The position numbers were made by a program, and so were the translations under genes. Positions 584 to 44,494 of a stretch of 47,327 nucleotides of DNA are shown piece by piece. This DNA is from Candidatus Micrarchaeota archaeon (lineage in GTDB: Archaea; Micrarchaeota; Micrarchaeia; Norongarragalinales; Norongarragalinaceae): assembly GCA_964408425.1 (NCBI GenBank), contig CAYOZI010000004.1, positions 1 to 47,327 of the forward strand. Direction: 5' to 3'. The stretch's first letter is position 1; every line of letters starts with the position of its first letter. The notes under the pieces were generated by a model. The model saw nothing but the letters and a program-made list of their open reading frames with translations, was not told where the DNA came from and ran no database searches.

Positions 584-1285
584 TTAAAACTCGCCCAGCT
601 TAGACTGCCCGGCGGGAGCGTGGTTCTTGCGTATGGTGCTCCACTCGTGCCTCAAGAACTCCTTCACTTCAGGCCTGTCGAAGTTTTTCTTCAGGAATTC
701 CACTGTTTTCGGGTCGTGGGTGTAACCGCTTCCGAAATCCCCTATTTTTTCATGCAAACTTTCAATCTGCCTGTCCCTCAACACCTTGGCTATTATCGAT
801 GCTGCGGAAACCACCGGATAATTGGCGTCCGCCTTGTTTTCGCATACCAATTCCATCTTGTGAGAGAAAAACTTCCTTATCCTCTTTTCAAACTTCGATG
901 GAACGGAATCCGGCGAGTCGATGTAAACCTTGGAAGGTTTGGACTTGAGCCTGGATAAAGCGTCCGCGGCCATCGCCGCCTCTATCGTGTTCAGGGAGAC
1001 TTTCTTCCTCATCAATTCTGTGATTTGGACTGCCGTGTATTCGACGACGGCGTTCTCCCAGCCGCGGGTTTTGGTCAGCGTGTCGAAAAGCCGCTCGCGC
1101 TGTAGCGGAGAAAGCATTTTCGAGTCCTTTACCCCGAGAGACCGCAATTCCTTTTCCGCTTCCTTGGGCGCGGAAAAAGCGCATAAGAATAACCCCCCGA
1201 AGACGCAGCCTTTTGGCTGAAATCAAACCGTAAGCTTGATTTCTCTGCCAGCCTCGTCTACGCCAGCTATTCTCGTTCTTTCCAT
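584..1285 (-). CDS. rnhB: Ribonuclease HII, coding sequence interrupted by a 33-nt in-frame insert that carries a TGA
   Basis: The ORF track shows only 584..1147: GVKDSKMLSP, DSPD, ADANYPVVSAASIIAKV, GDFGSGYTHDP. Hand translation upstream in the same frame gives MERTRIAGVDEAGR (ATG at 1283-1285), then EIKLTV-TGA-FQPK, then GCVFGGLFLCAF. Removing the 33 nt restores the canonical archaeal IAGxDEAG[KR]GCVxGPL N-terminus. Confidence 0.85.
1212..1244 (-). other. Candidate BHB (archaeal-type) intron inside the rnhB coding sequence
   Basis: mRNA sense: UGGC[aga]GAAAUCAA-gcuuacggu-UUGAUUUC-a-GCCA[aaa]ggcug. The 4-bp helix UGGC/GCCA is flanked by 3-nt bulges on opposite strands, next to an 8-bp intron helix. 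Cutting after the 2nd bulge nt on each side joins ...GGC AG|A GGC UGC..., which reads AGRGCV. Confidence 0.6.
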
Positions 1286-1341: not shown

Positions 1342-1498
1342 GGGGTCATGGTATAGTGGCATTACGGCAGGCTCCAGAATCTTGAATGATTGAGCCTTCG
1401 GGCAGTGATTAGGAAAAATTGTTCTGGAGCTCTGAATTGATGAAGAGCGGAAAAGGCGAAGAAACCTGCAGATCGGAGTTCGATTCTCCGTGACCCCA
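1342..1498 (+). tRNA. tRNA-Trp(CCA) with an 86-nt intron at the canonical 37/38 position
   Basis: Acceptor stem GGGGTCA/TGACCCC, discriminator A. Anticodon stem GCAGG (1367-71) / CCTGC (1465-69). Anticodon loop CT-CCA-GA. T arm CGGAG-TTCGATT-CTCCG. Intron is about 1378..1463. Confidence 0.9.
1378..1463 (+). ncRNA. Box C/D-like guide RNA embedded in the tRNA-Trp intron
   Basis: CUGA box at 1432-1435 and UGAUGA at 1438-1443, plus AUGAUUG and GUGAUUA variants further 5'. The 11 nt directly upstream of CUGA (GUUCUGGAGCU, 1421-1431) pair with 1370-1380 of the same pre-tRNA. The 5th nt upstream of CUGA pairs with C34 (nt 1374). Confidence 0.65.
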
Positions 1499-1577: not shown

Positions 1578-4500
1578 GTGATTATGGTGGGTTTGTCCAA
1601 CAAGCTTTTCTTACTAGCCGTTTTAGTCGGAGTGCTGGCTTTTGCAACCGGCACCCAAGCTTATTCCCAGCAGGGAATATGCAGTGCTAACGGAATTTCA
1701 ACGGGTTCGGACTGCGTTTTCAGGAACAGCCCTGAAACCATTCTGCCGGACGGTTCTTACTCTTACTCGTGCAACGCAGGAACTGCCAACGGACGGCTTG
1801 TCAGCAAATACCAGAACGGCTGCATCGGCACGACTTACTATGACTTTTCGGGCTCGTCTGCGAACATCCAAATCAAAAACAGGATTCTGACGGTGGGCGA
1901 TTACTGCGTGGCAGCGCCTACTTACAATTCTGTCCAGTGCGGTTACACCGACTATTCGGATTCAACCCCTTCGGACGGCGGTTATTACGATGCCGGCGAC
2001 ACGTACAACGATTATTCGACTGAAAACAATTACTACGACTATCCCGACGGAAGCGACTATTCTTCCTACGGCGGGTATTGCGGAAACGGGTATTGTGAGT
2101 ATGGAGAAAACGCGTGGAATTGCGCGCGGGACTGTTACAACCCGTTCGGCTCCCACTATTACTCTTCCTGCACCTTGAATTCGTTCCCTAGAAGCGTTTA
2201 TGCGGGGCAGTGGAGCGACATCGTCGTTACCTACACCGATTTGTTTTACTCCCCTTACACGATTCCCGTGAGCTGCGGAAACGGTTACGTTGCATACGCA
2301 TACGGTTCTTACGGGACTACGGGCACTTCGTTCGCCAGGTGTTATTATCCGAATGCGGGTTTGTACTACCAAACGGCTTACGCGGGCGGAATCGGTTGTA
2401 GCGCTTCTTTCGTACAGGTTTATCCCCAATCCACCACGCTTCCTCCTTCTAACGGGAATGACGGCAATGATGGAAACGGGGATAATGGGAATGGCGTTTC
2501 CCAAGCCCAGTGCTCGGTTATTTCCAACCCTGCCGAATTGACGCAGTCGGGCGTTTCAACAATCCGCGTTTATTACTCGGGCTTGAACAACGCGCCTGTG
2601 GGCGCGAGCGTCGCTTGCGGAGACGAGCCCGCGACCGTGAAGGAAGCTTCTTGTTCCAACGGCGTATGCACGACCCAATGCGCTTACACTCCCTCGAGAT
2701 TGCCTTATTACGCTGATGTGGATGTATTGCTGAAGGTTTCCTCGACCGATTCGTTGAGGTGCACTCCGGCTTTCGTCGCCATCAAAGCATCAACTCCTTC
2801 GGGAGACGGAAACGGTAACGATAACGGCAGCGGCAATAACAATAATGGAAACAGCAATGCCCCTGCTCCTGTTTCAAACCCCTCTTGCGCTATTCTTGCC
2901 AACCCGAATTCATTGCAGGACAACGGAACTTCGAAAATAACTGTTTTGTACCAGGATTTCGGAAACCAGAGCGTTCAAACCGCCAAGGTGTTTTGCGGAA
3001 ACCAGGCTGGTGAAGAGCCCAACGCCGCTTGCCCGGGCGGGGAGAACGGAATGTGCAATTCGGTTGATTGCGTTTATACCGCTCCTTCCGCTTATCCGAG
3101 GACTTTCAACGTGAGGGCCGCGATCGGAAGCGAGGTTTGCTCTTCGACTACAGTCACGCTTTACGGAAACAATCCTACCCCGCAGCCTCCGACTCCAGAG
3201 CAATTCGGCGGAATGGTGGTAACCGTTTCGGATTCATCCTCTTCCGCTCCGATAGCGAATGCTTTCGTCATCGTTTTCAAGAGCGGGGCGGCTGTTGATA
3301 CGGGTTTCACCGATTCTAATGGCGTAGTGAGCTTCACCGACTTGAAAGTGGGCGGTTATTCGCTTTCAGTTTCGAAAACAGGTTATTCTACCGCTTCCTC
3401 GACCGCGGCCGTTGCTGCGGATGAAAATTCGGGCGTTTCGATTTCCTTGTACAATGTTTTCGCCTCGCAATCTTGCGGCGTTTCACTGGTTTCTTCAATT
3501 GTCAAGCCAGACCAGATGACGGGAGTAAGAATAAATTACGACGGTTTTTCCTCGGCCCCTTCGGCAGTAGTGTCTTGCGATTCCAATGACGTTCCCGCTT
3601 CCTGTTCCAATCCGGTTAACGGAAAAGGCTCTTGCACCGCGCAGTGTTCTTTCGGAACTGAAAATTCTTATCCGCAAACCAAGCAGGTGAGCGGGTTTTT
3701 GAATTCAAACGTCGTTTGCTCTTCGGCTTTCGCCACGCTTAATGCGCCCGCTCCAACTCAAGCTACTCTCTTGACTAGGGTTTCGGAATGCGGTTCGGGC
3801 AAGGCGTTGCAAAGTGCAAGCGTTCTTGTGGACGGAACGACCCAATTGTATTCCGATTCTGACGGGGTCGCTTCTCTTTCCGTAGACCCGAATTCCGTTT
3901 ATACTATAGAAGTTTCAAAGAACGGTTTTGTTTCGGCTCAATTCACCGCCCAGGTTTTGGGTGCGGGAACGGGCGTTTCGAAAAGCGTTTGCCTGAACGC
4001 CATTCCGCAGAATGCGGTTCAGGACAATTGCGATTTCAATTCCGTTTTGATAAAAAGCCCCGTTTGCCCGTATTCAGTAACCCCGCAGCCTTACCAAGTG
4101 AAAATTTCCAGCAAAAACTCTACTGACAACATTACGGTTTCCATTCTCTATTCGACGAACGCCTTGACCGGCGCGTCGAGCGTCGTTTTGCTTCCGTTGC
4201 AACAGACTATCGTCGATTTCAATTCCACTTTGAGCGACGTGGTTGGAGCGAAGAACGCGATCGTTTCGTTCGCTTCGCAATCGTGCACTCGCAACATCGC
4301 CCTTCAAGCTTGTTCCAGCGGCGGCTTGACTCTCGAGATTCCTGAGAATTCGAAAACCGCCATAGCGGGCCAGGACGCTTGTTTCGACGTTTTGTTGAGA
4401 AACCGCGGTTTGGCGAGCGGAAAAGTAGTGATGACTTCCACTTCGAGCGACTCTTCGGTGACCGGAACGTTTTCGGAAAAGGAATTCACGATTTCCTCGC

Positions 4501-6638
4501 AGGAAACGAAGCAGCTGGAGTATTGCGTGAAAGCGCAGGGCAGCGGACAGAAGAGTTTCGTTTTGAACGCGGTCAGCGCGATGGGAGACGCTACCGCGAG
4601 CGCGGTTTTGACCATTCCCTCTTCGGCCAGCATTTCGACGAATGCCGGTTCCTGCATTTCGCTTGATGCCGATTCAACCGTTCAGAATGTGAATGTAGTT
4701 TTGACGAACAACGCGTTGGATGGCGACTACGTAGCGGAATTGATCGGTTTCGACGATCCGAATGAAGATGGCCTTCAGGCGCAGATAGTCCAGGACAAGA
4801 TTTACGATTTTGAAAAGGGAACGCTGAGGACTCTGGTGCTGAGGCTGAACCCGTTCAACTCCCAGGCTGGAGAGCACAGGTTCGACTTGCTTTTGAAGAA
4901 AGACGGGGTCGTTGCCATGCAGCAGAACATTTGTTTCGATATAGACGAAAACCGCAACCAGGCTGTTGCGTTAAACCCGTTGTCCCTGACGATTCAAGTG
5001 GGCAAGGCGGCTTCTTCGTTCTTGACCGTTGAAAACACGGGCAACATGAAGGTCACGTACTTCGTTTCCACTGCCGAAGACTTGCCCGTTCAAATATATC
5101 CCGACACTTTCTCGCTCGCGCCAGGAGAAAAGGAGGAAGTTGAAATCCAACTGACCACGCTCCAGTCGACCAGGCTGGGTTCTTACTCCATTCCGGTGCG
5201 CGTTGTTTCCAAAGCTAGCGAGGATGAAACTTATTCCGTAACCGTTTATTGCGGTAACGGCTTGAGCAAAACCGTCGCTTGCGAAGGCGGGGCCAACTCG
5301 TGCAGCGTTTCTTGCGACTACCAGAGCAACGGTTTGTATACGGTAACTTCTTCGATCGGAGGCGAGACTTGCGCTTCGACTCAAGTGCGCGTTGTCGAGA
5401 ACTATACCGATTCTTGTTATCTCTCGTTCAACCCCCAGGTGATAAAGCAGGATAATTACGCTGTTTTGACCGTGAACTACAGGGATTTGAGTGCTGGAGA
5501 GCAGGGCAACTTTACGTTGAATTGCGGCAACGGGCAGACTGCGGTAGTGCAGAATTGCGTTGGAAACACGGGCGCTTGCTCGGCGCAGTGCTATTACCCT
5601 GACGAGGGTTCTTTCGTAGCTTCCGCGCAGTCGGCGAATTATTCTTGTTCAACCGCCCAGATCGCGGTTGTGGACGACGGTTCCATTTGCAGGCTTTCCG
5701 CGCAGACGAACGTCCAGAGGAATACCGCTAATACGATAACCATGACTTACGACGTTTCCGAACTGCCTTCGGAAAGGGCGTTGTTGCTGGATTCCGTGAA
5801 AATGCTTGTCAACGTTGTCGCGGGCGCCCAGTCTTTCGAGCCCGAGGAATCAAGGAACATAATCGTTACCGCCCCCTCGTCTCTAGACCTACTGCCAGGT
5901 TCGACTGCATTATTGCCCATTACCGTGAAGAACAACGACCGTTTCGAGCTGAATACGGTGATCGTTTATTTGACGAACTTGCCTGCAGGCGTTTCGGTAA
6001 CCCAGCCTCCGGCGTTTTCGCTCGAGCCGGGCGCCAGCGCAACTCGCAACATTGTTTTGACCGCTTCGCAGGAAGCGCCGATCGCGTTGAGCACGGCGAG
6101 GATCAAGGTGGAATCGGGCGTTTTCGTAGCTCCGGACAAGAGCGTTGCCATAAACGTGCGCACTTCAACAGGCAAAGAGCTTTTGGTGTCCGAGGGAGAA
6201 CCGTCGTTCTCGTTCTCTTCAAAGGAAAACCTGACTGAAATAACCGTTTCCATTCCGGTTACGAACAACGAAAACACTGCCAGCGTGATAACAGCTTCGG
6301 CGGACTTGCCTCCTGGCTGGAGGTTCGGCTTTGCAGCCGTTTCATTGCAGCCTGGCCAGACGTCTTTGCTGGAGTTCAAACTTGTTTCCGAACAATATGA
6401 TGACAAGGAATTTGATGCCGTGATAAGGCTGCAGAATACTGAAAATAAGGTGAAGACCATTCCGCTGGCCATCCCCTCTAAGTCGAGCGCCAGCGGGTTG
6501 AGCGGCTTGTTCACCGCTTCTTCAACCACGGGCATAATCGTGCTGTTGCTGATAATCGGCATAGTGCTTGCGGGGTATTTCTTTTACAACTCGCGCGAAA
6601 CGCAGAAAAAGCTGACTGAAGATATTGAAAAGGATTAA
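1578..6638 (+). CDS. Giant secreted, C-terminally membrane-anchored surface protein (1686 aa) with repeated six-cysteine modules, CarboxypepD_reg-like domains and Ig/CARDB-like repeats
   Basis: Uninterrupted 5 kb ORF. N-terminal signal peptide (LFLLAVLVGVLAFATGTQA). At least 6 copies of a ~90-aa Cys-patterned module. Asn/Gly/Asp low-complexity linkers. Two MVVTVSD.../SECGSG... beta-sandwich segments. C-terminal TM helix plus a basic tail. Confidence 0.8.
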   Translation: MIMVGLSNKLFLLAVLVGVLAFATGTQAYSQQGICSANGISTGSDCVFRNSPETILPDGSYSYSCNAGTANGRLVSKYQNGCIGTTYYDFSGSSANIQIKNRILTVGDYCVAAPTYNSVQCGYTDYSDSTPSDGGYYDAGDTYNDYSTENNYYDYPDGSDYSSYGGYCGNGYCEYGENAWNCARDCYNPFGSHYYSSCTLNSFPRSVYAGQWSDIVVTYTDLFYSPYTIPVSCGNGYVAYAYGSYGTTGTSFARCYYPNAGLYYQTAYAGGIGCSASFVQVYPQSTTLPPSNGNDGNDGNGDNGNGVSQAQCSVISNPAELTQSGVSTIRVYYSGLNNAPVGASVACGDEPATVKEASCSNGVCTTQCAYTPSRLPYYADVDVLLKVSSTDSLRCTPAFVAIKASTPSGDGNGNDNGSGNNNNGNSNAPAPVSNPSCAILANPNSLQDNGTSKITVLYQDFGNQSVQTAKVFCGNQAGEEPNAACPGGENGMCNSVDCVYTAPSAYPRTFNVRAAIGSEVCSSTTVTLYGNNPTPQPPTPEQFGGMVVTVSDSSSSAPIANAFVIVFKSGAAVDTGFTDSNGVVSFTDLKVGGYSLSVSKTGYSTASSTAAVAADENSGVSISLYNVFASQSCGVSLVSSIVKPDQMTGVRINYDGFSSAPSAVVSCDSNDVPASCSNPVNGKGSCTAQCSFGTENSYPQTKQVSGFLNSNVVCSSAFATLNAPAPTQATLLTRVSECGSGKALQSASVLVDGTTQLYSDSDGVASLSVDPNSVYTIEVSKNGFVSAQFTAQVLGAGTGVSKSVCLNAIPQNAVQDNCDFNSVLIKSPVCPYSVTPQPYQVKISSKNSTDNITVSILYSTNALTGASSVVLLPLQQTIVDFNSTLSDVVGAKNAIVSFASQSCTRNIALQACSSGGLTLEIPENSKTAIAGQDACFDVLLRNRGLASGKVVMTSTSSDSSVTGTFSEKEFTISSQETKQLEYCVKAQGSGQKSFVLNAVSAMGDATASAVLTIPSSASISTNAGSCISLDADSTVQNVNVVLTNNALDGDYVAELIGFDDPNEDGLQAQIVQDKIYDFEKGTLRTLVLRLNPFNSQAGEHRFDLLLKKDGVVAMQQNICFDIDENRNQAVALNPLSLTIQVGKAASSFLTVENTGNMKVTYFVSTAEDLPVQIYPDTFSLAPGEKEEVEIQLTTLQSTRLGSYSIPVRVVSKASEDETYSVTVYCGNGLSKTVACEGGANSCSVSCDYQSNGLYTVTSSIGGETCASTQVRVVENYTDSCYLSFNPQVIKQDNYAVLTVNYRDLSAGEQGNFTLNCGNGQTAVVQNCVGNTGACSAQCYYPDEGSFVASAQSANYSCSTAQIAVVDDGSICRLSAQTNVQRNTANTITMTYDVSELPSERALLLDSVKMLVNVVAGAQSFEPEESRNIIVTAPSSLDLLPGSTALLPITVKNNDRFELNTVIVYLTNLPAGVSVTQPPAFSLEPGASATRNIVLTASQEAPIALSTARIKVESGVFVAPDKSVAINVRTSTGKELLVSEGEPSFSFSSKENLTEITVSIPVTNNENTASVITASADLPPGWRFGFAAVSLQPGQTSLLEFKLVSEQYDDKEFDAVIRLQNTENKVKTIPLAIPSKSSASGLSGLFTASSTTGIIVLLLIIGIVLAGYFFYNSRETQKKLTEDIEKD

Positions 6639-15560: not shown

Positions 15561-16067
15561 TCACCTTTTTTCGAATTTGCATGCGACTGCATAAAGCCAT
15601 CCGCCGAGCCTGTTGAAAAACTTGAATGCGACGGGCCTCAATTTCTTCCCCTCGAGCATGGGAAGCAAGGCTATTTCGGCTTCCCTGCTTCTCACGCGCG
15701 CTTCACTGAACGCGATGGCTGCTTTGTTCCTGAAGCGGATGAAGTGCTTGAATTCTTTTCCTTCACAAAGCCCGTCTATCCACCCTTCGAGCTTTCGAAC
15801 ATCGTTTTCTTCAACCGGGCTTTTCACCGGCCCGCCGGTGCGCCCGAACGAAATCTCACCGCACGTCTGCCACAATTTTTCCTGAACCAGGTCTACGGCC
15901 TGCTGCATTGTTTTATTCTTGCACTCTGACCTCGCATTGTCCAACGCGGCTTGCAGCGAATCTATCTTGCCTATCGCGATTATTGACGGGTCGTTCTTTT
16001 TGAGCTTGATTCCGCAAAGCGTCTTGGTGAAGCCAGAATCGCCAGTTCCGGTGTAGAGTTTCGGCAT
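15561..16067 (-). CDS. PduO-type ATP:cob(I)alamin adenosyltransferase
   Basis: MPKLYTGTGDSGFT..., IIAIGKIDSLQAAL, and a C-terminal FNRLGGWLY helix bundle. ATG at 16065-16067, 20 nt after the nrdJ stop. Confidence 0.85.
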   Translation of the reverse strand: MPKLYTGTGDSGFTKTLCGIKLKKNDPSIIAIGKIDSLQAALDNARSECKNKTMQQAVDLVQEKLWQTCGEISFGRTGGPVKSPVEENDVRKLEGWIDGLCEGKEFKHFIRFRNKAAIAFSEARVRSREAEIALLPMLEGKKLRPVAFKFFNRLGGWLYAVACKFEKR

Positions 16068-16086
16068 TTCAAACACACCCGACTTT

Positions 16087-18897
16087 TCACGAGCACCCGC
16101 TTGTGCCTCCACAGTTGAAGCATTTGTAACAGGATCCGCTTCTCACCATGATGCTTCCGCAATCGTCGCACACGGGCGCGTCGCTCTGGTTTTCGAACGA
16201 TTTGGTTACCCCCTTCTCCCCGGCAGAGTCGGAGGGAATGAAGCGGACTTTCGACTCGTCTTTCAAAAGTTTTTCCGTCGGAACCCCGCTTTCGGAATAT
16301 TGGGGCTTTACCTTGTCGGCTGCGGTCTTTCCTTCCGCGAGCTTCGTCTGCACCGTATTCCTTTCGTCCGGATTCAAGCCGAGTTCTTCCAAATCGTCGT
16401 CCCCCAAAAACTTGAACGCCAGCCACTTGAAGATGTAATCCATAATGCTTTTCGCAAAACGGATCTGCTCGTTTGTCGTCACTCCCGACGGCTCGAAGCG
16501 CATGTTGCAAAACTTCTTGGTGAGAACTTTGAGGGGAACTCCGTATTGCATGGCGATCGATATTGCCGTCGAGAATGCGTCCATCATTCCCGAAATCGTG
16601 CTTCCCTCTTTCGCCATTGTCACGAATATCTCCCCGGGCCTTCCGTCTTCGTACAAACCGACGGTTATGTAGCCTTCGTGCCCTGCCACGTCGAACTTGT
16701 GGGTAATTGCCTGCCTTTCGTCCGGCAAGCGTTCGCGCATGGGCCTGTAAACGATCCGCTCTTTTCCAGCTCCCGCGTCTCCCTTTTGTTTTGCCGAGCT
16801 GGTAGTCAAAGGCTGCGTGCGCTTGGAACCGTCGCGGTATATTGCAATCGCCTTCAGCCCTCCTTTCCACGCTTCCATGTAGGCGTTTTCTATATCCTCG
16901 GCAGTCGCTTCAGCCGGAAGGTTGACTGTTTTGGAAATGGCTCCTGAAATGAACGGCTGCACCGCGCTCATCATCCTCACGTGACCCAGATAGTGTATAG
17001 ACCGGGTTCCTTTGGAGGCTTTGAACGCGCAGTCGAAAATGTCCAAATGCTCTTTCTTCAAATGCGGAGACCCTTCAATCGTCTCGTGCTCGTTCAAGTG
17101 CTGCATGATGTCGGTAATCTCGTTCTTTTTGTAACCGATCTTTTCCAACGCAAGAGGAACAGTTGTGTTGACGATTTTCATCAACCCGCCTCCAACCAGC
17201 CACTTGTATTTTATCAACGCTATATCCGGCTCGACGCCTGTAGTGTCGCAGTCCATCAAAAACCCGATTGTCCCGGTGGGCGCGAGAACTGAAATCTGCG
17301 AGTTGCGGAAGCCGTTTTTCTTTCCGCTTTCCAACGCCCAATCCCACGCTCTCCTCGCCTCTTCAAGCAAATCCGGCTGGATGGAATCGGGAACGGCGTA
17401 GGCAGCATCGCGATGCATCGACATGACGTTCAAAAACGGCTTTTCATTCAACGCGTAACCTTTGAACGTTCCCTGCTTTTTCGCAACCAGCGTGGACGTG
17501 TAATAGGCATACCCGCTCATTAACGCCGTAATCGCAGCGGCGAAATTCCTTCCCTCTTCACTATCGTACGCCAACCCCTCGCTCATCAGCAATGCTCCGA
17601 GATTCGCATAGCCTATTCCGAGAGGGCGGAAGTCGTGGGAGTTGCGCGTAATCGCTTCAGTGGGATAAGACGCGTTGCCCACGACGATTTCCATTGCGGT
17701 TATTATCACCCTTACGGCTTTCCGGAAGCTTTCTATGTCGAAAGTCCCGTCGGGCATGCGGAATTTCATTAAATTCAAGGAAGCCAAATTGCACGACGTG
17801 TCGTCCAAAAACATGTACTCCGAGCAAGGGTTGGATGCGTTTATCCTGTCCGTGTTGGGGCACGTGTGCCACTTGTTGATCGTAGTGTCGAATTGCAATC
17901 CGGGATCCCCGCATATCCACGCCGCTTCGGAAACCTGCCTGAACAAATCGCGCGCTTGATACGAATCCGCCTTTTCCCCGTTGGTAACCATGTGCGTGGT
18001 CCATTCCTTGTTTTCCTCGACCGCACTCATGAATTCGTCCGTCACCCTCACGGAATGGTTGGCGTTCTGGAAATACACGGAACCGTATGCTTCTCCATCA
18101 ACGCTAGCATCGTAACCCGCTTCAATCAGCGCCCAAGCTTTCCTTTCTTCATTGGCCTTGCAGTTGATGAATTCCACGACATCGGGGTGGTCGATGTTGA
18201 GAATTACCATTTTCGCAGCCCTTCGCGTTCTGCCACCGCTTTTAATCACTCCTGCAAACGCATCGAATCCCTTCATGAAACTGACCGGCCCGCTGGCCCT
18301 GCCTGTTGAAAAGCTCAAGTGTTCTTTCGAAGAGCGAAGAACGGAAAAGTTCGTTCCGGTTCCGGAACCGTATTTGAAAAGCATTCCTTCCGTTACGGCC
18401 AAGTTCAAGATGCTTTTCATGTCGTCCTTCAAGGAATTGATGAAGCAAGCTGATCCCTGTGGGTGAGCCTCAATTCCAAAGTTAAACCACACCGGAGAAT
18501 TGAATGCGGCCAGCTGGTTGACGAGTATGTATGTCAACTCGTCTTCGAAAGTCTGCGCTTCCCCCTCGCCGGAAAAATAATTGCCTTGTCTCCCCCAGCT
18601 TGCAATCGTGTTTGCAACGCGTTCAATAAGCTGTTTTACGCTCGTTTCCCTGTTTGCGGTTCCCAATTGCCCGCGAAAATATTTCGAAACCGCGATTTTC
18701 ACCGCCTGCTGCGACCAGGTTGATGGGACTTCAACGTTTTTCTGCGAGAAAATGACTTTTCCGGTCGCATCGGCTATTTCCGCGTCCCTCAACTCCCATT
18801 TTATCTCGTCAAAAGGATTGGTTCCGGGTTTCGTGAAATACCTTTCGAACTTCAATTCGTTTTCGATGGTTCCAGTTACGGCAGTCGGCCTAGTCAT
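16087..18897 (-). CDS. nrdJ: Class II (adenosylcobalamin-dependent) ribonucleotide reductase
   Basis: 936 aa. NPCSEYMFLDDTSCNLASLNL active-site region, PTGTIGFLMDCDTTGVEP, and a C-terminal CxxC...CxxC zinc-ribbon tail. No intein-sized insertion. Confidence 0.9.
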   Translation of the reverse strand: MTRPTAVTGTIENELKFERYFTKPGTNPFDEIKWELRDAEIADATGKVIFSQKNVEVPSTWSQQAVKIAVSKYFRGQLGTANRETSVKQLIERVANTIASWGRQGNYFSGEGEAQTFEDELTYILVNQLAAFNSPVWFNFGIEAHPQGSACFINSLKDDMKSILNLAVTEGMLFKYGSGTGTNFSVLRSSKEHLSFSTGRASGPVSFMKGFDAFAGVIKSGGRTRRAAKMVILNIDHPDVVEFINCKANEERKAWALIEAGYDASVDGEAYGSVYFQNANHSVRVTDEFMSAVEENKEWTTHMVTNGEKADSYQARDLFRQVSEAAWICGDPGLQFDTTINKWHTCPNTDRINASNPCSEYMFLDDTSCNLASLNLMKFRMPDGTFDIESFRKAVRVIITAMEIVVGNASYPTEAITRNSHDFRPLGIGYANLGALLMSEGLAYDSEEGRNFAAAITALMSGYAYYTSTLVAKKQGTFKGYALNEKPFLNVMSMHRDAAYAVPDSIQPDLLEEARRAWDWALESGKKNGFRNSQISVLAPTGTIGFLMDCDTTGVEPDIALIKYKWLVGGGLMKIVNTTVPLALEKIGYKKNEITDIMQHLNEHETIEGSPHLKKEHLDIFDCAFKASKGTRSIHYLGHVRMMSAVQPFISGAISKTVNLPAEATAEDIENAYMEAWKGGLKAIAIYRDGSKRTQPLTTSSAKQKGDAGAGKERIVYRPMRERLPDERQAITHKFDVAGHEGYITVGLYEDGRPGEIFVTMAKEGSTISGMMDAFSTAISIAMQYGVPLKVLTKKFCNMRFEPSGVTTNEQIRFAKSIMDYIFKWLAFKFLGDDDLEELGLNPDERNTVQTKLAEGKTAADKVKPQYSESGVPTEKLLKDESKVRFIPSDSAGEKGVTKSFENQSDAPVCDDCGSIMVRSGSCYKCFNCGGTSGCS

Positions 18898-18969
18898 TGT
18901 CCCACACCCCCTCTTTCAAAAAAAAACAATGCTTCCTTTTTCAACTTTCGCTTTAATTTCCGGAAAAAT

Positions 18970-19413
18970 TCACTTGGAGAGCTTTTCCACTTCCTTGGCG
19001 AATTCCTTCGGGCTTTCGAACTCCTTGTAAATCGAAGCGAAGCGGATGTACGCGACCTTGTCGAGCTTCTTCAGCTTTTCCATGACTATCGCGCCCACCT
19101 TGGTCGAAGGGATTTCAGTCTCCTCCATTCCGCGCAATTCCATTTCAACTTCGGCAACCACGTTGTCCATCTGCTCGACGCTCACGGGGCGCTTGTGGCA
19201 GGACCTTTCTATTCCCGCCCTGAGCTTGTTGCGGTCGAATTTTTCGCGCCTCCCGTCCTTCTTTATTATTATGAGATCCAACGCTTCGGCCCGCTCGTAA
19301 GTGGTAAAACGCTTCTTGCACTTTTCGCACTCCCGCCTCCTTCTGGTGGAGTCTTCCGAATCGCGGCTTTCCAAGACTTCCGTTTCGGGACAACCGCAGT
19401 AAGGACAAATCAT
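18970..19413 (-). CDS. nrdR: NrdR-family transcriptional repressor (zinc ribbon plus ATP-cone)
   Basis: MICPYCGCPETEVLESRDS...RRRRECEKCKKRFTTYE followed by an ATP-cone (IIKKDGRREKFDRNKL...). It sits directly upstream of nrdJ. Confidence 0.85.
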   Translation of the reverse strand: MICPYCGCPETEVLESRDSEDSTRRRRECEKCKKRFTTYERAEALDLIIIKKDGRREKFDRNKLRAGIERSCHKRPVSVEQMDNVVAEVEMELRGMEETEIPSTKVGAIVMEKLKKLDKVAYIRFASIYKEFESPKEFAKEVEKLSK

Positions 19414-35731: not shown

Positions 35732-35846
35732 GCAGGGGTAGCAAAGCCTGGTCAAATGCGATGGGTTTAGGCGGGTTTCAAGAAATTGAAATTCCTAGAA
35801 AACCCATTCCCCTAGGGGTTCGTGGGTTCAAATCCCTCCCCCTGCA
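35732..35846 (+). tRNA. tRNA-Leu(UAG), class II with a long variable arm, carrying a 30-nt intron at 37/38
   Basis: Acceptor stem GCAGGGG/CCCCTGC. Anticodon stem ATGGG/CCCAT. Loop TT-TAG-G. Intron 35772..35801. BHB: UUUA/UAGA central helix with bulges gg|c and aa|a. Variable arm CCCC-TA-GGGG. Confidence 0.85.
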
Positions 35847-42563: not shown

Positions 42564-44167
<1,604 letters not shown>

Positions 44168-44376
44168 AAACAAAAAATCGGTCGGGAACTGATTTTGAAA
44201 AAAAAGAGCGTTTAGTTTGGACGGAATACCCTTATACCTTTAAATCAATCACCCAACTCTTTAAATCGGAAAAATGGCGTCCGTAAAAAAGATTTCTTGT
44301 GAAAAAAATACTCTTCTTCCCCTTTTATGATTATAAAATATGCAATCGCGCCATGTCGCGCCGAGAGCGATAAGTT

Positions 44377-44494
44377 GGGCTCGTGGCGCAGTGGCAGCGC
44401 GCCTGCTTTGCAAGAACCTTTCTTGGCGAAGAAAGCTTCACCAAAGAAGATCCAGAAAAGCAGGAGGCCGTGGGTTCAAATCCCACCGAGTCCA
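44377..44494 (+). tRNA. tRNA-Ala(UGC) in the 16S-23S spacer, with a 46-nt intron at 37/38
   Basis: Acceptor stem GGGCTCG/CGAGTCC with the G3:U70 identity pair. Anticodon stem CCTGC/GCAGG. Loop TT-TGC-A. Intron 44413..44458. BHB central helix UUUG/CAGA with bulges ca|a and aa|a. Confidence 0.9.

Follow-up and report, generated by a model that had tools for sequence, protein, structure and literature searches.

A candidate bulge-helix-bulge intron in the RNase HII gene of Micrarchaeota, with counterparts at the same site in Asgard archaea and Bathyarchaeia

The interrupted rnhB gene and its predicted spliced product

The window analyzed here is the whole of a 47,327-nucleotide (nt) stretch of DNA from a Candidatus Micrarchaeota archaeon (contig CAYOZI010000004.1, positions 1 to 47,327, assembly GCA_964408425.1). 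On its minus strand it carries rnhB, the gene for RNase HII (1285..584), which is split by 33 nt at 1244..1212. From the ATG at 1285, the minus-strand frame reads MERTRIAGVDEAGR, followed by EIKLTV, a stop codon and FQPK, and then by GCVFGG, continuing as GCVFGGLFLC. An earlier interpretation made from the letters of the window only (the sequence-only reading) had proposed that these 33 nt, lying between the Arg and Gly of the DEAGRG active-site motif, are an intron of the bulge-helix-bulge (BHB) type that is removed by the archaeal splicing endonuclease. The frame, the length and position of the insert, and its in-frame stop were all found to be exact. The parts of the gene are as follows.

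rnhB exon 1: 1245..1285, minus strand; ATG at 1285, 13 codons plus the AG of an Arg codon (MERTRIAGVDEAG + AG); its DE catalytic pair aligns to solved RNase HII structures
Candidate 33-nt intron: 1212..1244, minus strand; A GAAAUCAAGCUUACGGUUUGAUUUC A GCCA AA, with an in-frame UGA (TGA in the DNA) at 1225..1223
rnhB exon 2: 584..1211, minus strand; A of the Arg codon, then GCVFGG and onward to the stop codon TAA at 586..584

Excision of the 33 nt restores DEAGRGCV, with two equivalent registers owing to the flanking A/G. The predicted junction after virtual splicing is GGCAG↓AGGCUG in RNA (GCUGGCAG joined to AGGCUGCGUC), which encodes the peptide VDEAGRGCVFGG. The spliced product of 222 amino acids (aa) matches positions 1-198 of the 199 in the Pfam profile RNase_HII (PF01351) with an E value of 1.6e-47, and it aligns without gaps across the junction to solved archaeal RNase HII proteins (1uax, AGVDEAGRGPVIG; 3p83, AGIDEAGKGCVIG; also 1i39). 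Only when the 33 nt are taken out does the protein show a full-length RNase HII domain that includes the DE(A)G[RK]G metal-binding motif at its N-terminus, so the expectation that excision would restore both frame and motif was borne out. A Pfam profile survey of ~50 open reading frames (ORFs) of the window found no second obviously interrupted gene.

RNA fold and covariation among relatives

The insert contains an 8-base-pair (bp) perfect inverted repeat (1243-1236 with 1226-1219), which extends to 10-11 bp when G.U pairs are allowed. A 91-nt RNA around the insert folds with a predicted energy of -39.4 kcal/mol (z = -5.28), and none of 200 shuffled sequences folds as well. From 5′ to 3′, the element consists of GACGAGGC (outer helix), UGGC (central helix), the bulge AG↓A, a 10-bp inner helix, an extra A, GCCA (central helix), the bulge AA↓A, and GGCUGCGUC (outer helix), where arrows mark the predicted cuts. 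Two 3-nt bulges, AGA and AAA, thus stand on opposite strands with the 4-bp helix UGGC/GCCA between them; this is the order of helices and bulges that the sequence-only reading had described, including its 8-bp inner helix.

Outer helix h, 5′ strand: 1251..1258, minus strand; GACGAGGC, codons Asp-Glu-Al(a), invariant in all intron holders found via proteins, with synonymous variation in relatives that have no intron
Central 4-bp helix H, 5′ strand: 1247..1250, minus strand; UGGC, exon sequence made up of the Ala wobble base and the Gly codon, covarying with 1214-1217
5′ bulge: 1244..1246, minus strand; AG↓A, predicted cut between 1245 and 1244 by the rule seen in tRNA-Leu (GG↓C) and tRNA-Ala (CA↓A)
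Inner helix h′, 5′ strand: 1234..1243, minus strand; GAAAUCAAGC, with compensatory A-U/G-C and U-A/C-G changes in relatives
Inner helix h′, 3′ strand: 1219..1228, minus strand; GUUUGAUUUC, identified by fold, inverted repeat and covariation
Extra unpaired A: 1218, minus strand; between h′ and H, making the 5′ bulge a 3x1 internal loop, a relaxed feature of the window's clade
Central helix H, 3′ strand: 1214..1217, minus strand; GCCA, on the intron side, identified by covariation
3′ bulge: 1211..1213, minus strand; AA↓A, predicted cut between 1212 and 1211, the 3′ bulges of tRNA-Leu and tRNA-Ala being likewise AA↓A
Outer helix h, 3′ strand: 1202..1210, minus strand; GGCUGCGUC, codons Gly-Cys-Val, with one bulged G and one A x G mismatch

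The inner helix h′ is strong (10 bp) and is set off from H by A 1218, and the outer helix h has seven pairs together with its bulge and mismatch. A generic BHB scan of the window (4-bp H, inner helix of >=5 or >=7 pairs, G.U allowed) returned 865 matches compared with ~430 in shuffled sequences and is therefore too noisy for finding more mRNA introns; the rnhB site was distinguished in it merely by an 11-pair inner helix.

A protein search with the spliced RNase HII placed the window in Candidatus Micrarchaeota. The best match (P0001) is 85% identical, full-length and intronless, and its locus (L007) shares the tRNA-Trp neighbor of rnhB. Several other close matches are N-terminally truncated gene calls, and the DNA upstream of them shows an insert with stop codons at the same site in five lineages.

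P0012: 71% identity to the window, insert of 33 nt
P0014: 61% identity to the window, insert of 33 nt
P0016: 62% identity to the window, insert of 39 nt
P0017: 60% identity to the window, insert of 33 nt
P0025: 55% identity to the window, insert of 36 nt

Exon 1 (..AGVDEAG) is intact in all five. Related rnhB loci, which the sequence-only reading had proposed to compare, therefore include holders as well as intronless relatives, and among the holders the insert site is identical while the sequence and length of the insert differ. The central helix shows paired substitutions among relatives (UGGC/GCCA, CGGC/GCCG, CGGU/ACCG, GGGA/UCCU and others). When the five sequences of the window's clade were aligned (alignment A2), 99.0% of cells were paired, compared with 25-44% for slid partners, and compensatory double changes were seen at four pairs, split evenly between the central and the inner helix. 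All five carry an extra base (A or G) at the position of A 1218 that is absent from most Asgard and Bathyarchaeia versions; the window's clade holds a relaxed BHB variant.

All six intron holders found via proteins read GAC GAG GCN GGN AGA GGC NNN GTC, whereas five intronless close relatives vary there (GAT/GAC; GAA/GAG; Arg CGA/AGA/AGG/CGC/CGT; Val GTT/GTG or Ile ATA). Synonymous sites of the outer helix and the bulges are thus fixed only where the intron is present. The insert is also unevenly distributed among near relatives: P0001, 85% identical to the window, is intronless, and the holder L001 is 90% identical to intronless P0007, which implies precise recent loss, or gain. In L001-L005 (~343-1416), a TrmB-like ORF lies upstream and continues in frame into exon 1 of rnhB; gene calls follow it as far as the stop codon within the intron, and rnhB in these loci probably starts at a TTG shortly upstream of ..NENIKRIAGVDEAG. 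Two intronless Micrarchaeota/Norongarragalinales RNase HII proteins (P0008 at L104 and P0004 at L107) carry DDTGRG in place of the usual DEAGRG. A contig scan with a single protein as query (exact 8-residue words) returned one unrelated bacterial locus only.

Metagenome contigs were scanned with a pattern that fixed GACGAGGCNGGNAR and AARGGNNNNGTNNTNGG and left the insert and its pairing partners free. Among 100 pattern matches (loci plus the window), 74 are rnhB after virtual splicing and represent 60 distinct sequences, a lower bound, as the pattern misses variants such as CP070831.1 (GAT, AUA bulge). The inserts measure 26, 28, 29, 30 (38 of the 60), 31, 32, 33, 36, 37 or 39 nt; 15 have a length that is not divisible by 3, 56 contain an in-frame stop, and none is readable unspliced. 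After virtual splicing 53 of the 60 read as RNase HII to a stop codon, and the rest reach contig ends. Cutting after the second base of each bulge restores DEAGRG and RNase HII in silico in the window and in every distinct sequence, including the 15 with frameshifting lengths.

The central helix has all four pairs in 47 of these sequences and three in the other 13. Its two positions left free by the pattern are paired in 114 of 120 cases, compared with a mean of 77.7 and a maximum of 94 in 10,000 permutations, and the Gly wobble position is paired in 60/60 with all four bases in use. The 5′ bulge is AGA in 53/60 and the 3′ bulge AAA in 57/60 (its AAR being fixed by the pattern). The inner hairpin lies flush against the central helix, as in the canonical motif, in 52/60; one extra base occurs in the window's clade and in three others. 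For the gapless 30-nt Asgard set (alignment A1, 35 sequences), 92.0% of cells were paired compared with 29-49% for slid partners, seven pairs showed double changes, and none of 500 shuffles attained the observed covariation score.

The 30-nt class is Asgard, its nearest database proteins belonging to Promethearchaeota/Lokiarchaeota, Hodarchaeota, Hermodarchaeota, Thorarchaeota and Odinarchaeota. Most of these proteins (P0121-P0151) are 213-aa calls that start with M[LS]KGSVLGP at an ATG within the intron and are without the catalytic DE motif; intronless Lokiarchaeota homologs read ICGIDEAGRGPVLGP. The closed Asgard genome CP070831.1 (GCA_020344955.1; L108, ~2419320-2419380) has GAT GAG GCT GGT AG↓A, 30 nt, and AU↓A GGC, and it too is annotated with the 213-aa form (MLKGSVLGP...). 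The 29-nt class belongs to Bathyarchaeia/Thermoproteota, in which database matches of 84-96% identity are truncated gene calls and those of 60-75% are intronless, and the remaining insert classes are nearest to Micrarchaeota or other DPANN-like sequences. Asgard and Bathyarchaeia copies usually have the canonical motif, unlike the relaxed one of the window. The phenomenon is thus not confined to the lineage of the window, and its distribution is much wider than the sequence-only reading had supposed.

Proposed splicing and the alternatives to it

Rfam identified three tRNA genes in the window, each with an intron (ARAGORN detected no tRNA anywhere in it), which agrees with the sequence-only reading's claim that tRNA introns abound there. 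Two of them carry canonical introns.

tRNA-Leu(UAG): 35732-35846, plus strand; 30-nt intron, anticodon stem AUGGG/CCCAU, H UUUA/UAGA, bulges GG↓C and AA↓A
tRNA-Ala(UGC): 44377-44494, plus strand, in the 16S-23S spacer; 46-nt intron, anticodon stem CCUGC/GCAGG, H UUUG/CAGA, bulges CA↓A and AA↓A

In both, cutting after the second bulge base gives a correct 7-nt anticodon loop, and the order on the 5′ strand (outer helix, central helix, bulge, inner helix) is identical to that of the rnhB element. A cut between the second and third bulge residues is also given for the cbf5 mRNA intron (PMC2738675). The cut position proposed for rnhB therefore follows the rule of the window's own tRNA-Leu and tRNA-Ala introns and of cbf5.

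An insert of this kind recurs at the identical position in dozens of genomes of Micrarchaeota, Asgard archaea and Bathyarchaeia, so the one in the window is very probably a true, previously unreported mRNA intron. From the fold and the comparative evidence, we consider it highly likely that a BHB intron of the rnhB pre-mRNA accounts for these 33 nt (1244..1212). The sequence-only reading is supported as far as sequence can take it. In the structure, the Asp-Glu-Ala codons (GACGAGGC) pair with the Gly-Cys-Val codons (GGCUGCGUC) as the outer helix, UGGC, from the last Ala base and the Gly codon, pairs with GCCA of the intron as the 4-bp central helix, and the 10-bp hairpin of the intron supplies the inner helix; the AG↓A and AA↓A bulges are thereby presented on opposite strands. 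In the proposed mechanism, the splicing endonuclease EndA would cut after the second base of each bulge and leave 2′,3′-cyclic phosphate and 5′-OH ends, which an RtcB-type ligase would join, rebuilding the AGA Arg codon and with it the DEAGRG metal-binding motif. The 33-nt intron would be released, probably as a circle. Active RNase HII would be made from spliced mRNA only, as the unspliced message ends after 20 codons.

Several observations weigh against this interpretation. The motif in the window is not strict: the extra A (1218) produces a 3x1 internal loop at the 5′ site, and a bulged G together with an A x G mismatch makes the outer helix imperfect. These two departures had been listed by the sequence-only reading, and both are real. 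In addition, the unconstrained minimum free energy (MFE) fold and RNAalifold favor a central helix of only 3 bp next to a bulge of four unpaired bases (AAAA). The changes in relatives speak for the 4-bp helix instead: pairs covary from UA to CG at one end and from CG to UA at the other, and 114/120 free positions are paired. RNAalifold also fails to recover the central helix in the AU-rich Asgard set; as it assigns these helices only -4.5 kcal/mol, support from that set comes from pair counts, not from energy. As the 5′ exon and the AAR of the 3′ bulge were set by the metagenome pattern, their conservation among the matches is uninformative. A search of the protein database returned no protein in the spliced form for the lineages of the window, L071 or L061. 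Lastly, neither EndA nor RtcB was found among the ~50 window ORFs surveyed with Pfam, and the EndA type of this organism is for that reason inferred from relatives in the literature. Broad-specificity EndA is known for Micrarchaeota (epsilon2) and other DPANN lineages (PMC5829648, PMC12397907); the epsilon2 form is described from Micrarchaeum and Mancarchaeum, and alpha4 types that bear a loop from other DPANN (PMC5829648). The relaxed-specificity EndA of TACK and Asgard archaea is an (alpha-beta)2 enzyme with a specific loop (PMC5829648, PMC12397907).

An EndA site need not serve splicing. It could mainly destroy or throttle rnhB mRNA, with ligation inefficient or absent, and so act as a regulatory switch instead of a constitutive intron. 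A BHB element in the Haloferax HVO_1309 5′ untranslated region (UTR) affects expression (PMC7714728), and with the site so close to the beginning of the coding region, cleavage would be decisive for expression of the gene. Against this, all lineages, also the 15 cases with frameshifting lengths, have kept exon 1 and restore frame and motif exactly, which is sensible only if the ligated product matters, and intronless relatives indicate that the gene works without the element. We therefore regard a mainly regulatory site as improbable.

Still less credit can be given to the idea that the insert is an inert palindrome in a decaying or dispensable gene, or an assembly error. RNase HII is not essential in every archaeon, the insert does contain a stop codon, and gene callers give truncated products only (P0002, P0012 and others). 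A pseudogene would not be expected to look as these loci do, though: across three superphyla, the 60 distinct sequences have the insert at the same nucleotide as their single lesion, with exon 1 intact and full frames once it is removed, and helix covariation also speaks against an inert insertion. The 35-nt element is present as a single copy in the window. At intronless L007, blastn homology to the window starts exactly at 1211, the first base of exon 2. Two other loci contain the identical 33 nt: L018, 100% identical to positions 1-1432 of the window, and L021, which comes from a different JGI sample and is 99.95% identical to positions 7-1875. Near-identical contigs occur in the JGI samples Ga0209518 and Ga0209542. 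Decay of rnhB among relatives and an assembly artefact were among the points that the sequence-only reading had named as telling against an intron; the 60 sequences show no such decay, and the independent assemblies that share the 33 nt exclude the artefact.

Translational skipping, in which ribosomes would hop over the hairpin as in phage T4 gene 60, and the synthesis of RNase HII as two pieces are likewise barely credible. A stable hairpin with a stop soon after a Gly codon does resemble a bypass signal, and a Gly codon also lies 3′ of the insert. However, a Gly-to-Gly hop would cost the invariant DEAGRG its Arg-Gly, the Gly codons on the two sides of the insert do not match across lineages, and hopping leaves the covariation of exon NGGN with the 4 nt before the 3′ bulge unexplained. 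In the window, moreover, no start codon occurs past the insert until residue 37-47. Other candidates were rejected: stop-codon reassignment by the occurrence of all three stops and of frameshifts across lineages, an intein or tolerated peptide insertion by the stops and frameshifts, a group I or II intron by the far too short length, and a repeat or miniature inverted-repeat transposable element by the single copy of the element.

Relation to known introns and significance

The pre-mRNA intron of cbf5 was treated by Yokobori (2009; PMC2738675) and reportedly by Watanabe (2002) and Yoshinari (2006). The cbf5 gene encodes a pseudouridine synthase, and its intron in Crenarchaeota is likewise a short BHB intron in a coding gene, of 16-44 bp compared with 26-39 nt in rnhB (PMC2738675). 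The two also share a split codon at a catalytic motif, a cut between the second and third bulge residues, an often relaxed motif, a patchy distribution among close relatives that implies gain or loss, and a history of being routinely missed by annotation (PMC2738675). Unlike the cbf5 intron of Sulfolobales and Desulfurococcales, the rnhB intron occurs in Micrarchaeota (DPANN), Asgard archaea and Bathyarchaeia, and many of its copies are canonical, not relaxed. Splicing of cbf5 has been proven by cDNA and in vitro cleavage, whereas that of rnhB is predicted from sequence. Papers of 2018-2025 cite cbf5 as the sole coding-region BHB intron (PMC5829648, PMC12397907, PMC7714728), and the Haloferax study, which adds the HVO_1309 5′ UTR, names cbf5 as the only other mRNA example (PMC7714728). 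Our literature search found no report of an rnhB intron; subscription journals were mostly outside its scope, so an earlier description is possible.

The HVO_1309 intron of Haloferax volcanii resembles that of rnhB in being an mRNA substrate of the splicing endonuclease outside Crenarchaeota, but it lies in an untranslated leader, where no protein sequence depends on exact ligation (PMC7714728). The eukaryotic HAC1/XBP1 system (IRE1, with RtcB or Trl1) likewise excises a short mRNA intron by protein enzymes at structure-defined sites, with tRNA-ligase chemistry and a change of frame. It differs in its nuclease (IRE1), in its use of two stem-loops instead of a BHB, and in its established regulatory role.

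Canonical archaeal tRNA introns at position 37/38 have the architecture (hBHBh′) and the cut rule of the rnhB intron, and the tRNA-Leu and tRNA-Ala introns of the window share its AA↓A 3′ bulge. The hBHBh′ motif of archaeal tRNA introns is said to have been treated by Marck and Grosjean in 2003. Unlike tRNA introns, the rnhB intron has an mRNA as its host, and its outer and central helices are made of codons whose sequence is limited by the protein; the window copy further differs from canonical tRNA introns by its one extra unpaired base and imperfect outer helix.

The third tRNA gene of the window, tRNA-Trp(CCA) (1342-1498, plus strand), is the divergent neighbor of rnhB, and its ~86-nt intron bears motifs that resemble C/D boxes; L007 and L008 have kept both the gene and the intron. 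The intron segment UUCUGGAG lies directly before a CUGA and forms pairs with CUCCAGAA, the anticodon loop; by analogy with the Haloferax pre-tRNA-Trp intron, this pairing would put C34 at the position that a box D guide would methylate. The splice motif looks relaxed, with the central helix CUCC/GAAG and the bulges AG↓A and AA↓A. The 16S rRNA match (42564-44168, plus strand) is 1605 nt long, 127 nt longer than the 1478-nt model, with only small inserts in the first ~700 model positions, and may contain an rRNA intron. Two protein-coding regions of the window are also worth recording. A 1686-aa ORF at 1578-6638 (plus strand) starts with a signal-like N-terminus, contains carboxypeptidase-regulatory-like and Ig-like domains, has a hydrophobic stretch at its C-terminus, and is probably a giant surface protein. 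At 15561-19413 (minus strand), a cobalamin adenosyltransferase, a class II (B12-dependent) ribonucleotide reductase (936 aa, TSCPD domain) and an NrdR-like repressor are clustered.

With respect to the origin of the rnhB intron, it would have been inherited within a clade of Micrarchaeota and precisely lost in close relatives. The same-site introns of Asgard archaea and Bathyarchaeia would reflect either an old intron or a self-complementary coding motif that serves as a recurrent landing site. That a single ancient rnhB mRNA intron predates the divergence of DPANN, Asgard and TACK, has kept the same codon phase and was lost many times is conceivable from its distribution, though rather doubtful. 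As a variant of this scenario, the intron may be a mobile element homing to the self-complementary DEAG-RG coding motif.

If the intron is real, rnhB would be only the second known protein-coding gene in Archaea with an endonuclease-spliced intron and the first beyond cbf5. It would also be the first seen in DPANN, and the first in the closest relatives of eukaryotes, the Asgard archaea. Public annotation would be systematically wrong, with RNase HII entries that start inside the intron and are without the catalytic Asp-Glu. Its presence at the same nucleotide position in three superphyla, together with its precise absence from relatives of 85-90% identity, would provide a test case for intron gain, retention and loss. 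Since exon codons build two of the three helices, the gene would also show clearly how mRNA structure is selected for at synonymous positions, and its introns, canonical and relaxed, would be new natural substrates for well-studied splicing endonucleases. Were the ancient-intron scenario true, mRNA splicing by protein enzymes would be an ancestral and widespread archaeal trait, shared by the archaeal ancestor of eukaryotes.

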